A DNA stretch of 64,000 nt from Escherichia coli (GCF_050920415.1 NZ_CP169309.1), one strand, 5' to 3'; shown: positions 3-55,721, counted from the first letter of the stretch. The notes: generated by a model from the letters alone, not told the origin. Program-made: numbers and translations.

Positions 3-1061
3 AGTGATGATGCATCCGGCTATCTGGATTTTTTCAAAGGCGAGATAGGAAAAACCCATCTGGCTCAGGAGCTGTGGACGCAGATTGATAACGGTCAGCT
101 GGCGCCTGATCTGGCTGAAATCAGGACGTCCATTACGGATGTCAGCAATGAAATCACACAGACCGTCAATAAGAAACTGGAAGACCAGAGTGCGGCAATT
201 CAGCAGATACAGAAGGTTCAGGTTGATACAAATAATAACCTGAACAGCATGTGGGCTGTGAAGCTGCAGCAGATGCAGGACGGACGCCTTTATATCGCGG
301 GTATTGGTGCCGGTATTGAGAACACCCCTGACGGCATGCAGAGTCAGGTGCTGCTGGCGGCGGACAGGATTGCGATGGTTAATCCTGCGAATGGCAACAC
401 AAAACCGATGTTTGTTGGTCAGGGCGATCAGATATTCATGAACGACGTGTTCCTGAAGCGCCTGACGGCCCCCACCATTACCAGCGGCGGCAATCCCCCG
501 GCCTTTTCCCTGACACCGGACGGAAAGCTGACGGCTAAAAATGCGGATATCAGTGGCAGTGTGAATGCGAACTCCGGGACGCTCAACAACGTCACGATTA
601 ATGAGAACTGTCAGATTAAGGGGAAACTGTCAGCCAATCAGATTGAAGGCGATATTGTCAAAACAGTGGGTAAGGCTTTCCCGCGGGACTCCCGGGCACC
701 GGAGCGGTGGCCATCAGGGACCATTACCGTCAGGATTTATGACGATCAGCCTTTTGACAGGCAAATTGTTATTCCAGCGGTGGCATTCTGCGGCGCTAAA
801 CATGAGCGGGAGAATAACGATATTTATTCGTCATGCCGCCTGATAGTGAAGAAAAATGGTGCTGAAATTTATAACCGTACCGCGCTGGATAATACGCTGA
901 TTTACAGTGGTGTTATTGATATGCCAGCTGGTCACGGCCACATGACGCTGGAGTTTTCGGTGTCAGCATGGCTGGTAAATGACTGGTATCCCACAGCAAG
1001 TATCAGCGATTTGCTGGTTGTGGTGATGAAGAAAGCCACCGCAGGCATCAGTATCAGCTGA
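3..1061 (+). CDS. Phage host-specificity / central tail fibre protein J, C-terminal part (5' end cut by window edge)
   Basis: Frame is open from position 3 to the stop at 1061; the translation resembles the lambda gpJ C-terminal region as recalled, and lom follows as in lambda. Confidence 0.8.
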
Positions 1062-35510: not shown

Positions 35511-35750
35511 ACATTTAAGCTGATGACCACCACGCTTTTTATTGACCATTTTGCACGCAAACTGGAAAACCTGGCGTCGTCATCTATTCTTAAAGGGCAA
35601 GGCAACTAAGCCTGCATTAATGCCAACTTTTAGCGCACGGCTCTCTCCCAAGAGCCATTTCCCTGGACCGAATACAGGAATCGTGTTCGGTCTCTTTTTA
35701 TCTGTTAAAAGCCAGAAGCATTCCCTTCGCTGACTTTATAGTCAACCATA
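35470..35750 (-). ncRNA. ryeA: sRNA RyeA (SraC), antisense to SdsR
   Basis: Known antisense partner of SdsR in the pphA-yebY intergenic region; ends are approximate. Confidence 0.4.
35598..35700 (+). ncRNA. sdsR: sRNA SdsR (RyeB), RpoS-dependent
   Basis: Sequence gcaaggcaactaagcctgcattaatgcc ... ggaccgaatacaggaatcgtgttcggtctcttttt matches SdsR as recalled, with terminator hairpin and T-run at 35666-35699. Confidence 0.75.
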
Positions 35751-50585: not shown

Positions 50586-51211
50586 AATTCATCCTGATTA
50601 TACGCACTGTCATGGTGCAACTGCTTCAAATTAAAACTCTGGTCTGACTTCAAATAATTATCATATTATTTATTTGCGTAACGGGATATCAGAAAAAGAT
50701 ATTTAGCCCATTAATTTATTAGGATGTTTACATCGGATTTGTGATTAAGCGTGTTATTATTTATTAGCGAAACGTTTCTCTCTTGATTTTTTTGCGCATT
50801 CATCAATTTTTCTTATTTTAAATTTACAATACCTTTGGCGATTGACTTCTCTTTGGGGTGATTGATAGCCGTTAACTGACTGTTTTATGAGAAAAAGTGA
50901 TATAACTTTTTATTCATTGCATAGCAGAAAATGTGATATTGCACGCACTATGTAATAACTTCTCCCATTGGCCTGGAACAACTGAACTTATTGAACTATG
51001 TTAGAAAATACGTCAGTTTAAGTATCTGCCTGAACTGGCAAGGTTAAGCACAATGATATATCGGCGCGTATTCCGTTGCATAAGTGTGCAAAAAAAGTGG
51101 AAGACGTATCGAGATTTGTGCGTCTGATCGAGACATGTTTAAAAATGGCTTGCCATAATTAACGTTGTATGTGATAACAGATTTCGGGTTAAACGAGGTA
51201 CAGTTCTGTTT

Positions 51212-51355
51212 ATGTGTGGCATTTTCAGTAAAGAAGTCCTGAGTAAACACGTTGACGTTGAATACCGCTTCTCTGCCGAGCCTTATATTGGTGCCTCATG
51301 CAGTAATGTGTCAGTTTTATCTATGTTATGCCTGCGGGCGAAGAAAACAATCTAA
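51212..51355 (+). CDS. yobF: Small protein YobF (co-transcribed with cspC)
   Basis: Translation [47 protein letters not shown] (47 aa), directly upstream of cspC. Confidence 0.75.
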
Positions 51356-51367
51356 GGAATTTTTCAA

Positions 51368-51577
51368 ATGGCAAAGATTAAAGGTCAGGTTAAGTGGTTC
51401 AACGAGTCTAAAGGTTTTGGCTTCATTACTCCGGCTGATGGCAGCAAAGACGTGTTCGTACACTTCTCCGCTATCCAGGGTAATGGCTTCAAAACTCTGG
51501 CTGAAGGTCAGAACGTTGAGTTCGAAATTCAGGACGGCCAGAAAGGTCCGGCAGCTGTTAACGTAACAGCTATCTGA
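51368..51577 (+). CDS. cspC: Cold-shock-domain protein CspC
   Basis: 69 aa with RNP motifs KGFGFI and VFVHF. Confidence 0.95.
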
Positions 51578-51623
51578 TCGAATCCACTGATCTGAAGTGT
51601 GAATACGCTTCAATCTCGCTATA

Positions 51624-51649
51624 AAGCCTCGTCGAATGCGAGGCTTTTT
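51624..51649 (+). terminator. Rho-independent terminator after cspC
   Basis: Hairpin aagcctcg-tcgaatg-cgaggctt followed by TTTT. Confidence 0.65.
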
Positions 51650-51742
51650 ACTTTGCTTTATCTTCGCTCCTGGCATTCGGATATTTGCCCGCCGCGTGAT
51701 TCGCGTTACACTTGCGGCCTTTAGTATCCTGCCGGAGTTGTC

Positions 51743-52552
51743 ATGTCGTTTTCCTGTCCACTTTGCCATCAGCCTCTTTCGCGTGAAAAAAACAGCTATA
51801 TCTGTCCCCAGCGACATCAGTTTGATATGGCGAAAGAAGGGTATGTCAATCTGCTGCCCGTTCAGCATAAACGGTCTCGTGATCCGGGCGACAGCGCGGA
51901 AATGATGCAAGCACGACGCGCATTCTTAGATGCCGGACATTATCAGCCGCTGCGTGATGCAATTGTTGCCCAACTGCGGGAACAGCTTGATGAAACGGCC
52001 ACGGCGGTGCTGGATATCGGCTGTGGTGAAGGGTATTACACACACGCATTTGCCGATGCGTTGCCCGAAATCACCACGTTTGGTCTGGATGTCTCGAAGG
52101 TGGCGATCAAAGCTGCGGCAAAACGCTATCCGCAGGTCACTTTTTGTGTCGCTTCCAGTCACCGTTTGCCGTTTGCCGATGCCAGCATGAACGCCATTAT
52201 TCGCATCTATGCGCCGTGTAAAGCAGAAGAATTAGCGCGCGTAGTGAAGCCCGGCGGTTGGATCATTACAGCTACGCCGGGACCGCGACATTTGATGGAG
52301 CTGAAGGGGCTGATTTACAATGAAGTACATCTTCATGCACCTCATGCAGAACAGCTGGAAGGTTTTACATTACAGCAGAGTGATGAATTGTGTTATCTGA
52401 TGCGTCTTCGCGGTGATGAGGCCGTCGCGTTATTGCAGATGACGCCGTTTGCCTGGCGTGCGAAGCCAGAAGTCTGGCAAACGCTGGCAGCAAAAGAAGT
52501 GTTTGACTGCCAGACGGACTTTAATATTCACCTCTGGCAGCGCTCTTATTAA
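51743..52552 (+). CDS. rlmA: 23S rRNA m1G745 methyltransferase RlmA
   Basis: 269 aa with N-terminal Cys4 zinc ribbon and SAM motif LDIGCGEG. Confidence 0.93.
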
Positions 52553-53115
52553 CCGTGGTAGTGCGTCCAGAGGATCTGGACGCCGATGCCGATCAGCACC
52601 AACCCGCCGAGAATTTCTGCTTTTTTCCCAATAATTGAGCCGATAAAGCGGCCAACCATCATCCCTAATGTCGACATAATCAAGGTTGCACAACCAATGG
52701 CCAATGCGGTCGCGATAATGTTGACCTGCAGGAAGGCCAGACCAACCCCCACAGCCATCGCATCCAGGCTGGTGGCAATCGCGGTGGTTACCAGTAGCCA
52801 GAAACCGTGTCGACGGCGCGGTTCTTCATCTTCATCATCTGCGCCACGAAAACCCTCAATAATCATTCGCCCGCCGAGGAATATCAGCAGCACAAACGCA
52901 ATCCAGTGGTTCCATTCAAGGACAAACCGGCTGGCTAACATGCCCATTCCCCAGCCGATCAGCGGTGTCAGGGTTTCGACGGCACCAAAAATAAGGCCGG
53001 TTCGCAACGCTTCAGAAAATTTCGGTTTATGGAGGGTGGCACCTTTACCGATTGATGCAGCAAATGCATCCATCGACATACCAAACGCAAGAAGAACAGT
53101 AGCAGTGATATTCAT
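52549..53115 (-). CDS. mntP: Manganese efflux pump MntP (YebN)
   Basis: 188 aa from [25 protein letters not shown]. Confidence 0.9.
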
Positions 53116-53119
53116 GACA

Positions 53120-53330
53120 ACGTCCTGACCGGGGTATCCATAAAACACACCATCGCCCCCAGCAAACATGCATACATGAACAACAAACCGCGATGATTTT
53201 CGCGTTCATGCAGGCATAGCGATTGATGTGCATATGGTCTCGCCTGACTGAAAGTGTTCAGTCCGTACGTGCCACGTTTTGCAACGAGTATGTTGACACG
53301 TACATTTCCGGAATCTGGAAATCGGCTACT
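53120..53330 (-). promoter_or_regulatory. mntP 5' leader, expected to contain the yybP-ykoY Mn2+ riboswitch
   Basis: Long GC-structured untranslated leader between mntP and yobD; the riboswitch assignment is from prior knowledge of mntP regulation, and its boundaries were not verified. Confidence 0.4.
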
Positions 53331-53543
53331 CCCCAAATGAGGGCGCAACATTAACATATTTTTAGAATATAAAACAACTGTTGGGATATATTATTTCAGC
53401 AGTTAATTGATAACGATTTTCATTTAGATTTATATATCAATGAAACGTTAAAATAAATAACAAATAAGGGATGGGATAATATAGCCTAAGCTATGTCTGA
53501 TTATTTAAAATACAGCAAACATAGCTTTGGCTAAATTCATAAC

Positions 53544-54002
53544 TTATTGAGTGGAAACAAGAAGTTTATAAATTTTCTCCAGGTCGTCGATATTTCGAAC
53601 GCGGATTAACAGCCGGCGCTGTTCTAATTGCATCACCAACACGCCATCTTCAGACAAGTTCATCGCTTTAATTCGACTATATTCAATCCAGACATTGGCG
53701 AAGAAAAAACCTTTTTGTTTAAAGATGATCTTCGGAACGCGGATCCAGAATATATAAAAACCCATCAGAGCCAGTGCACTTAATAACCATGTCGTTATTT
53801 GCGCGCCATGATTCGTGACGTTGTTATAGATAAGAATGACAATCAATCCGACGAAGATAACGCTATCGATGCGACCACGCCGGAGCAAAGGAATTGCCAG
53901 CAGAGTGGGGCCGTTGCGGCGGGGCATGATGAACTGATCGTAGATCGCGAAGGTCAGGAGTGCGGCGATAAAAAGAATCAGTACCAGGTCCGTGATTGTC
54001 AT
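53544..54002 (-). CDS. yobD: Inner membrane protein YobD (DUF986)
   Basis: 152 aa ORF recognised as YobD. Confidence 0.85.
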
Positions 54003-54056
54003 TAATCCTCCAGATAAAAAAACGGGGCCAAAAGGCCCCGGTAGTGTACAACAGTC

Positions 54057-54917
54057 TTACAGTCCCAGTAGGCCGCAAGCATAACCCGCGATACCGATGA
54101 CGAAGAAGCCAACGATGATCCACAGCGGATTAACTTTTTTGCGCAGCAGCCACATACAAGCAAAGGTCAGCAGTAGCGGTACCAGGCCCGGCATTAACTG
54201 GTCAAGAATAGTCTGGACAGTGGTAACGTGTTCTTTGCCCGTCTGGTCAGTAATGCGAGAGACAACCAGCGGGATGTTGACATGTGTCCACTTGTTAACC
54301 AATGCCCCCATGACAAACAGGCCGAGAATAGACGCCCCTTCCGTCAGTTTTTGCAGGAAGCCGCCACCCATATCTTTAACGATATCGATACCTTTGGAGT
54401 AACCATACGCTACGCCGTAATAACGGGTTGCCAGACGCACCAGGTTAAACAGGATGAAGAACAGAAGCGGACCTAACAGGCTGCCGCTCATCGCGATACC
54501 GGCACCCAGCGCTGCAAATACCGGACGTACCGTTCCCCAGAAGATCGGGTCGCCCACACCAGCCAGCGGGCCCATCAAACCAACTTTGATACCGTTGATA
54601 GCACCGTCGTCGATCTCTGCGCCATTAGCACGCTGTTCTTCCAGCGCCAGGGTTACGCCGAGAATCGGCGCAGCCACGAACGGCTGGGTGTTAAAGAACT
54701 CCAGGTGACGGCGAATAGCTTGTTTACGAGCTTCGTTGTTCTCAGGGTAGAGGCGACGAATTGCCGGTACCATAGAGAAGCAGAAACCCAGTGCCTGCAT
54801 ACGTTCGAAGTTCCATGAACCCTGGAAGAGGTTAGAACGCAGGAAGACGCCACGAATATCACTTTGAGTGAGTTTTTTCTCGGTGGTAGTTTGAGTTGTA
54901 TCAACCATTTCGCTCAC
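54057..54917 (-). CDS. manZ: Mannose PTS EIID component
   Basis: Recognised as ManZ; start is either the ATG at 54917 or the one at 54908. Confidence 0.93.
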   Translation of the reverse strand: MSEMVDTTQTTTEKKLTQSDIRGVFLRSNLFQGSWNFERMQALGFCFSMVPAIRRLYPENNEARKQAIRRHLEFFNTQPFVAAPILGVTLALEEQRANGAEIDDGAINGIKVGLMGPLAGVGDPIFWGTVRPVFAALGAGIAMSGSLLGPLLFFILFNLVRLATRYYGVAYGYSKGIDIVKDMGGGFLQKLTEGASILGLFVMGALVNKWTHVNIPLVVSRITDQTGKEHVTTVQTILDQLMPGLVPLLLTFACMWLLRKKVNPLWIIVGFFVIGIAGYACGLLGL

Positions 54918-54920
54918 CTG

Positions 54921-55721
54921 TTAGTCCAGTTCGTTATCGAGATCGTTGTTACCAGCTGCCTGAGCAGGCGCACCGGCTACGCGGTTGTATTTCGGGCTAA
55001 GTTGGATGTAGAGCACTGCCATAACAGTACCAATCACACCCAGAGCAACCAGGTTAAAGTTGGTGAATGCTGCGGTTACGAAGCCGAGGTAGAAGAACGG
55101 CATCAGGTAGCCAGCACGCATCATGTTGATAACCATCGCATAACCAACCACCACGATCATGCCACCGGCGATATTCAGACCATTGGTTACCACTTCCGGA
55201 ATCGCATTCAGCATGTTCTGTACTTCGCTGGTACCAACAGACAGCGCAACGATGACGGCTGGAATAGCCACACGCATTGCTTGCAGGAACAGAGAAGAAA
55301 CGTGGATCCAGGAAATCGCTGTCAGGTTGCCGTTATCTGCAGCCTTATCCGCAGCGTGCTGGAAAGCAACGGTAATAGTACGAACGATGATGGTCAGTAC
55401 CTGGCCCGCAGCGGCCAGAGGGATTGCCAGTGCGATACCCGCACCAATGCTCTGATGACCTGCAATAACCAGAATGGTAGAAATGATAGAAGCCAGAGCG
55501 GCGTCAGGCGCAACGGCAGCACCGATGTTCATCCAGCCCAGCGCGATCATTTCCAGCGTACCACCGATAATAATACCGGTTTTCATATCCCCAAGAACGA
55601 TACCCACCAGGGTACACGCGATTAGCGGACGGTGAAACTGAAATTCATCGAGGATTGATCCCATACCTGCGATACAGGCTACGATAAATACCAGCACAAT
55701 TTGAAGAGTGGTAATCTCCAT
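54921..55721 (-). CDS. manY: Mannose PTS EIIC component
   Basis: 266 aa ORF recognised as ManY. Confidence 0.95.
   Translation of the reverse strand: MEITTLQIVLVFIVACIAGMGSILDEFQFHRPLIACTLVGIVLGDMKTGIIIGGTLEMIALGWMNIGAAVAPDAALASIISTILVIAGHQSIGAGIALAIPLAAAGQVLTIIVRTITVAFQHAADKAADNGNLTAISWIHVSSLFLQAMRVAIPAVIVALSVGTSEVQNMLNAIPEVVTNGLNIAGGMIVVVGYAMVINMMRAGYLMPFFYLGFVTAAFTNFNLVALGVIGTVMAVLYIQLSPKYNRVAGAPAQAAGNNDLDNELD

Follow-up and report, generated by a model that had tools for sequence, protein, structure and literature searches.

MntP is the main manganese exporter of Escherichia coli, for which an excess or a shortage of the metal is toxic, and the control region of its gene is a classic example of metal sensing in layers, in which proteins act at the promoter and an RNA sensor and Rho then act in the leader. 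The closest described system is the 5' untranslated region of mntP (yebN) in strain K-12 (Dambach 2015; Price 2015, PDB 4Y1M; PMC12153347; PMC11647493). This leader has been validated experimentally and its apo crystal structure is available as PDB 4Y1M (PMC12153347). In transcripts of about 205 nt made without manganese, loop L1 and helix P1.1 of the aptamer are disrupted, and P1.1 forms new pairs in the expression platform (PMC12153347). Deletion of +1 to +19 abolishes the manganese response, and Rho terminates most transcripts within the leader and the early open reading frame, an effect that manganese partly relieves (PMC11647493). Further upstream, both MntR and Mn-loaded Fur bind at the promoter of mntP and lift repression by H-NS, according to the review PMC8632737, which cites Dambach 2015. 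Mn2+ binding, the actions of MntR, Fur and H-NS, translational control and the role of Rho are taken from this literature; the sequence elements, the two alternative helices with their covariation and the energy ranking of the folds come from the analysis described here.

We examined the orthologous region in a 64,000-nt stretch of DNA (hereafter the window), which is E. coli chromosome. Of 5426 complete E. coli genomes, 5422 gave a match to a 428-bp query from the window, with 100% identity to strain MFDS1022581 and 95-99% identity to most other E. coli. The element in this interval is almost certainly the known mntP Mn2+ riboswitch together with the MntR/Fur-controlled promoter, which makes two layers of manganese control. 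This control region is already known, and nothing about it is new here save for a detail concerning a heptamer in the platform loop. The flanking genes are the following.

54002..53544, minus strand: yobD, with the RefSeq name and boundaries
52549..53115, minus strand: mntP coding sequence, 188 aa plus stop, with its start codon at 53115..53113

An initial annotation, made from the sequence, had named these two genes and placed a 428-bp gap between them, and both statements hold. The reading frame at 53115..52552 (minus strand) matches NCBIfam NF008546 ('manganese efflux pump MntP') with 413.5 bits over positions 1-188 of 188, and 54002..53547 (minus strand) matches the DUF986 family, which corresponds to YobD. 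RefSeq gives the same gene names and boundaries, and the same mntP start, in both K-12 and MFDS1022581, and the gap between the genes is exactly 53116..53543.

The same annotation expected a yybP-ykoY Mn2+ riboswitch on the minus strand within 53116-53400. We scanned 3 kb (52000..55000) against all 4227 families of Rfam 15 with covariance models. The family RF00080 (Manganese, yybP-ykoY) ranked first, with a match at 53342..53246 (minus strand) that is significant by E-value (41.9 bits, E = 3e-9), and the aptamer itself was placed at 53340..53231, in the 5' leader of the gene for the Mn2+ exporter identified above by its NF008546 match. Neither the L1 motif (UUGGGGAGUAGCC) nor the L3 motif (GUCAACAUACU) departs from the consensus of the Rfam model. 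The expected riboswitch hit is thus significant, but it lies below the curated cut-off, as does that of K-12. The gathering score of RF00080 is 45 bits, some 3 bits above the window element, and the riboswitch is missing from the output when the whole window is scanned with the default gathering cut-offs; it appears only when an E-value threshold is used.

Because the K-12 reference element likewise falls short (41.6 bits), we attribute the shortfall to the model: the score below 45 bits reflects the sensitivity of the model and not the sequence of the window. In the copy of the RF00080 model that we used, the 3' strand of P1 is absent and the 3' region is long and poorly defined. Only 7 of 15 enterobacterial orthologues pass the gathering cut-off, and the K-12 alx leader gave no match to RF00080 at E <= 0.01. 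The cut-off under-calls this subtype. It passes over both validated E. coli manganese riboswitches, and genome annotations are blank at these sites; the RefSeq records that we inspected have no feature annotated in the mntP leader.

The default scan of the window lists only SraC/RyeA, SdsR/RyeB and the cspA thermoregulator. The first two form an overlapping pair of antisense small RNAs at 35559..35703 (SraC/RyeA on the minus strand, 175 bits; SdsR/RyeB on the plus strand, 114 bits). The thermoregulator match (51192..51652, plus strand, 135.7 bits) covers the leader and coding sequence of a 69-aa cold-shock gene at 51368..51577, which is cspC in the K-12 annotation and cspE according to PGAP in MFDS1022581.

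The aptamer was mapped by hand, and its fold was predicted as the minimum-free-energy (MFE) structure. Leader positions are numbered from nt 1 = 53340, such that the window position equals 53341 minus the leader position.

53231..53340, minus strand: Mn2+ aptamer, a four-way junction of 110 nt
nt 2-4/108-110 and 6-8/104-106, minus strand: P1.1 of the aptamer fold
nt 9-14 and 100-103, minus strand: L1 of the aptamer fold
nt 15-17/97-99, minus strand: P1.2 of the aptamer fold
nt 19-24/32-37, minus strand: P2 of the aptamer fold
nt 38-47/67-76, minus strand: P3.1 of the aptamer fold
nt 48-54, minus strand: L3 of the aptamer fold
nt 55-58/63-66, minus strand: P3.2 of the aptamer fold
nt 78-84/89-95, minus strand: P4 of the aptamer fold
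53326..53334, minus strand: L1 motif GGGGAGUAG (nt 7-15), which includes A11 and equals the Rfam consensus
53288..53295, minus strand: L3 motif CAACAUAC (nt 46-53), part of the metal-binding core and equal to the Rfam consensus
53231..53237, minus strand: 3' half of the P1.1 switch helix, CCAUAUG (nt 104-110), which follows the conserved GAGA of L1

The fold is the four-way junction known from the literature, made up of P1 (split by L1 into P1.1 and P1.2), P2, P3 (split by L3) and P4. Its predicted energy is -37.1 kcal/mol, compared with -25.2 +/- 3.3 kcal/mol for shuffled sequences (z = -3.6; none of 200 shuffles was as good), and the MFE structure coincides with the centroid structure. The full leader also folds better than its shuffles (z = -2.9), and together with the covariation these values agree with the description of the leader as structured in the initial annotation.

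For comparison among species we fetched 80 loci by way of the MntP protein, a route independent of the RNA; nearly all of them are from Enterobacteriaceae. In an alignment of the 71 distinct orthologous aptamers, 96.4% of cells form standard pairs, as against 26-45% in controls with slid partners. Double (compensatory) changes were found in 19 of 36 aptamer pairs, with at least one compensatory pair in every helix and seven in P4. Both conserved loops are present, L1 as GGGGAGUAG ... GAGACC and L3 as CAACAUAC. Seven of the nine columns of the L1 motif are invariant across the 71 orthologues and the other two nearly so; in the L3 motif the corresponding figures are seven of eight, and one. The adenosine of L1 that makes a cross-helix A-minor contact (A11; PMC12153347) is found at 53330, and A48, the first unpaired base of L3, at 53293, both in agreement with the numbering of PMC12153347. 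Within E. coli, 4601 of 5422 genomes carry an aptamer of 99% identity or more, but only 6 have the entire intergenic region conserved to that degree, and the aptamer thus appears, from sequence comparison, to be under purifying selection. Mn2+ binding and raised expression in response are described for K-12 (PMC12153347; PMC11647493), whose aptamer departs from this one at a single base in the P4 loop, and would be expected of the element in the window.

Downstream of the aptamer, the leader continues to the start codon of mntP through a long helix and the ribosome-binding site.

53138..53237, minus strand: platform helix (nt 104-203), pairing 104-108/199-203, 110-117/189-196 and 119-123/184-188, with a variable apex
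53128..53134, minus strand: heptamer CCCCGGU next to the ribosome-binding site (nt 207-213), paired with UUGGGG (nt 5-10) in the leader MFE structure
53123..53126, minus strand: Shine-Dalgarno sequence AGGA (nt 215-218), 7 nt before the AUG, read from the sequence

When the full leader was folded, P1.2, P2, P3 and P4 were retained in the MFE structure but P1.1 was open, and its CCAUA (nt 104-108) instead formed the base of the platform helix by pairing with UAUGG (nt 199-203). The 3' half of P1.1 therefore has two partners, nt 2-8 in the aptamer fold and nt 196-203 in the full-leader MFE structure, and both are conserved. Without ligand, the alternative fold lies 7.1 kcal/mol below the best fold with P1.1 closed (4-12 kcal/mol in 15 orthologues), and the P1.1 3' strand takes the same platform partner in the MFE structures of nearly all 77 orthologues. 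Across 79 leaders, the platform helices are 97.2% paired (29-52% in slid controls), and 9 of 22 pairs show double changes, such that the alternative partner of the P1.1 3' half is itself a covarying one. This alternative fold agrees with the re-pairing reported in PMC12153347 and with the effect of the +1 to +19 deletion in PMC11647493. The energy ranking, as far as the folding model goes, fits a default-off switch whose on-state would need Mn2+-dependent tertiary stabilisation.

The opening of P1.1 also bears on the 5' end of the leader. In the MFE structure UUGGGG (nt 5-10) pairs with CCCCGG (nt 207-212), a segment separated by 2 nt from the Shine-Dalgarno sequence that follows it, and the six core pairs are 100% pairable in 79 sequences; changes in this helix among the 79 sequences are one-sided only, with no double changes. 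The sequence GGUC(A/U)GGAC at the Shine-Dalgarno site is nearly invariant. When ensembles with the aptamer forced closed were compared with unconstrained ensembles for 16 leaders, the accessibility of the Shine-Dalgarno sequence showed no consistent difference, and the ribosome-binding site has likewise been reported to show no clear manganese-dependent change in reactivity (PMC12153347).

Two other ways of masking the Shine-Dalgarno sequence were considered and rejected. A local hairpin between the Shine-Dalgarno sequence and the AUG (nt 213-219/223-229; UCAGGAC-GUU-GUCAUGA, 53113..53129) has a predicted pairing probability of about 0.9 in Escherichia but is only 75% paired among the orthologues, with no double changes and no excess over shuffles; no covariation supports it across Enterobacteriaceae. 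Pairing between the Shine-Dalgarno region and the P4 5' strand, which was suggested by the Rfam alignment of one sequence (L082), is at odds with the free covariation of P4 and the constancy of the Shine-Dalgarno region. In Cedecea sulfonylureivorans (L068) and Enterobacter sp. R1 (L082), the ribosome-binding region within the last 25 nt before the AUG is CCCAACUGAGGCG and not CCCGGUCAGGACG, and CUGAGG is paired with the P4 5' strand (GACUCAG) in the Rfam alignment. This lineage may have another way of masking the Shine-Dalgarno sequence.

The initial annotation described the gap between the genes as having no ORF, which is correct biologically, as no ORF in it is conserved, but not mechanically: a list of ORFs includes frames of 28-81 aa within the gap as well as a 206-aa in-frame extension of mntP. 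Several AUGs are present in the leader, and they share a frame that ends at the UGA of nt 227-229, overlapping the mntP start (AUGA).

53141 (AUG at nt 200), minus strand: short leader ORF of 9 codons, whose UGA overlaps the mntP AUG
53153 (AUG at nt 188), minus strand: short leader ORF of 13 codons, whose UGA overlaps the mntP AUG

It might be argued from this arrangement that the leader acts through a translated upstream ORF, as a leader peptide or by translational coupling, either instead of the riboswitch or besides it. Among the leader AUGs, only that at nt 200 is invariant, being present in all 79 sequences, and gene callers often begin MntP inside the leader or platform, which gives predictions of 199, 200 or 239 aa. 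However, the invariant AUG lies 26 nt from the mntP AUG in 36 sequences, 27 nt in 20 and 28 nt in 22, and these differences among genera place it out of frame, in frame or in a frame that runs off. As the frame is not kept between genera, we rejected a conserved upstream ORF. The conservation of the AUG is instead explained by the UAUGG:CCAUA pairing, substitutions track base-pair covariation and not codon patterns, and the leader is treated as untranslated in PMC11647493. Control through a translated leader ORF thus seems highly improbable. With respect to the database predictions, an in-frame GUG at 53148 accounts for the frequent database entries for an MntP of 199 aa, and those of 200 and 239 aa are found in Enterobacter.

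The apex of the platform helix varies even within Escherichia.

53193..53204, minus strand: CGCGAAAAUCAU, an insert of 12 nt in the platform apex that the window shares with K-12

This insert is absent from five other Escherichia genomes (L003-L007, including E. albertii and E. whittamii). In the lineage of the window it forms a terminator-like hairpin at 53204..53189 (CGCG-AAAATCAT-CGCG, followed by GTTTGTTGTT), whose stem is weaker in K-12. The leader could on this basis be taken for a riboswitch of the Bacillus or Lactococcus style that controls an intrinsic terminator, with a hairpin CGCG-AAAAUCAU-CGCG plus GUUUGUUGUU at 53204..53179, and this is indeed the sole terminator-like site in the region (0.5 are expected by chance). 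Nevertheless, its stem has only 5 pairs, belongs to an insert in a variable apex that other Escherichia lack, is outside the MFE structure and lies far from the P1.1 switch; the K-12 version is weaker still, and the literature describes translational control and Rho in place of intrinsic termination. Control by an intrinsic terminator is therefore extremely improbable.

With regard to the promoter, the initial annotation had mentioned MntR and Fur sites in addition to the riboswitch, and sequences resembling both were found upstream of the aptamer.

53519..53536, minus strand: MntR-type operator 1, ATTTAGC-CAAA-GCTATGT, with two mismatches to ACATAGCNNNNGCTATGT
53479..53496, minus strand: MntR-type operator 2, ACATAGC-TTAG-GCTATAT, with one mismatch to the mntH-derived pattern
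53409..53427, minus strand: Fur-like box CTAAATGAAAATCGTTATC, matching 14 of 19 positions of the Fur consensus GATAATGATAATCATTATC
53372..53377, minus strand: candidate -35 element TTGTTT, hand-picked from the sequence
53348..53356, minus strand: candidate extended -10 element TG-T-TAATGT, also hand-picked (TAAGGT in K-12)
53340, minus strand: probable transcription start (nt 1), giving a 225-nt 5' untranslated region

The two boxes at 53536..53519 and 53496..53479 fit the MntR palindrome ACATAGC-N4-GCTATGT with two mismatches and one, respectively, and closely resemble AAACATAGCAAAGGCTATGTTT upstream of K-12 mntH, which we take to be the mntH MntR operator (Patzer and Hantke 2001). Operator 1 begins 8 nt past the yobD stop, and its right half is identical to the K-12 mntH box; together the two operators make up a 22-nt inverted repeat (I1). 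Relative to the aptamer start, most of about 75 species have a box of the operator 1 type near -196, and operator 2 is kept at about -155 in nearly all of them; in these boxes the half-sites are conserved but the 4-nt spacers vary. Since matches to the bare pattern in the 64 kb are within what chance would give (4 found, 2.4 expected), the assignment draws its weight from conservation and context. The Fur-like box, at 53427..53409, has a match of 14 out of 19 in very AT-rich DNA, where a consensus match alone is weak; when 78 sequences were scanned with up to 6 mismatches allowed, roughly 70 of them had a box at about -87.

The DNA upstream of nt 1 has a GC content of only 21-29%, and a consensus scan of the region for sigma-70 promoters found none. 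This lack of a consensus promoter fits a promoter that depends on activators and is silenced by H-NS. The position of the candidate -10 element fits a transcription start near 53340, and with this start the positions of A11, A48 and nt 110 match the numbering of PMC12153347.

As the region immediately follows yobD and shares its strand, its structure might alternatively belong to the 3' UTR or terminator of yobD, or to an independent small RNA, and have no relation to mntP. The palindromic segment 53467..53548 gave weak matches to miRNA models, but the palindromes in question are the two MntR operators. No terminator-like site was found between yobD and 53340, the structured RNA starts 200 nt past yobD and reaches the ribosome-binding site of mntP, and the element accompanies mntP in all 77 usable loci. 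We accordingly assign a vanishingly small probability to an element unrelated to mntP. The individual matches to mir-282, mir-355 and other miRNA families (53466..53548, both strands) were discarded as spurious products of the palindromic sequence in the two MntR boxes. Separately, the interval between yobD and the mntP promoter (53341..53546) has no terminator-like site, and read-through from yobD into the leader is therefore possible.

Taken together with the literature, these elements indicate how mntP is most probably controlled by manganese at two successive layers. In the first, two MntR operators and a Fur-like box lie upstream of an AT-rich, non-consensus promoter, where Mn-bound MntR and Fur, as reported, would bind and relieve silencing by H-NS. 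In the second, nt 1-110 of the 225-nt leader form the yybP-ykoY four-way-junction aptamer. Without Mn2+, the UAUGG at the platform base would capture the CCAUA of the P1.1 3' half, and the freed UUGGGG would then pair with CCCCGG to give a compact ribosome landing site and low translation; the untranslated leader RNA would in turn be exposed to Rho-dependent termination. Mn2+ would reverse the platform fold and thereby allow more of the MntP exporter to be made. In this scheme, we infer the exact mode by which the ribosome-binding site is occluded.

One feature of the platform loop suggests a possible addition to this scheme.

53157..53163, minus strand: platform-loop heptamer GCUGGGG (nt 178-184), which is ACUGGGG in most genera

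This heptamer is nearly invariant despite its position in an apical loop, and it is complementary to the CCCCGGU of nt 207-213 (99.3% of cells pairable). In Cedecea (L068) and Enterobacter sp. R1 (L082), CCCCAAC replaces the usual tail and GUUGGGG the usual loop sequence, which amounts to two compensatory pairs. These are the two most divergent sequences and represent a single lineage, which provides the only comparative support for pairing between loop and tail; a protein search for more distant MntP orthologues returned only relatives with at least 85% identity, which added no diversity for this comparison. It is conceivable, although we consider it rather unlikely, that CCCCGGU is contested by two G-rich strands, namely the freed 5' strand of P1.1/L1, in line with the kind of model already published, and the loop sequence (A/G)CUGGGG. 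The pairing of loop and tail would be a pseudoknot that looks sterically feasible only when the platform base is open, as in the Mn-bound state. The platform was described in 2025 as a 'single helix', and the pairing between loop and tail was not included in that description. If true, such a pairing could explain both the conservation of the loop and the lack of a simple manganese-dependent change at the ribosome-binding site in probing experiments. The complementarity of these heptamers is the sole unreported detail here, and we offer it as a hypothesis and not as a finding.

The locus can finally be set against the described systems in turn. The K-12 mntP leader is orthologous and has the same flanking genes; it is identical to that of the window at 109 of 110 positions in the aptamer and at 219 of 225 in the leader, and the two share the four-way junction, L1, L3, the P1.1 switch, the platform helix and the ribosome-binding site. 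All six leader substitutions are structure-neutral. The one in the aptamer is a base of the P4 loop (53256), and the others are three bases of the platform apex, a change of the U115-A191 pair to U115-G191 and one base in the spacer between the Shine-Dalgarno sequence and the AUG. The apex bases give the window a neater CGCG hairpin and U-rich run, and in the promoter the candidate -10 element is TAATGT in the window and TAAGGT in K-12.

Among other yybP-ykoY riboswitches, we compared those of L. lactis yoaB, B. subtilis yybP/ykoY and X. oryzae. The L. lactis and B. subtilis elements work with an intrinsic terminator, whereas mntP has a long helix that ends at the ribosome-binding site, with translational and Rho-dependent control. 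The Mn2+/pH riboswitch of E. coli alx (PRE) belongs to the same family in the same organism, with an L1-type GGGGAGUA and a 3' strand GUGAGACC. Like that of mntP, it lies upstream of a manganese exporter gene and exerts translational control, but it differs in lacking P2 (and thus forming a three-way junction), in its L3, in having an intrinsic terminator and in responding to alkaline pH (PMC12153347).

At the level of the promoter, E. coli mntH has the same type of palindromic MntR box (AAACATAGC-AAAG-GCTATGTTT) together with a Fur box. The mntH boxes lie just upstream of the start codon and, according to the literature, repress transcription, whereas the two MntR boxes of mntP are found some 140-196 bp before the start and have an activating role, reportedly through relief of H-NS repression (PMC8632737).
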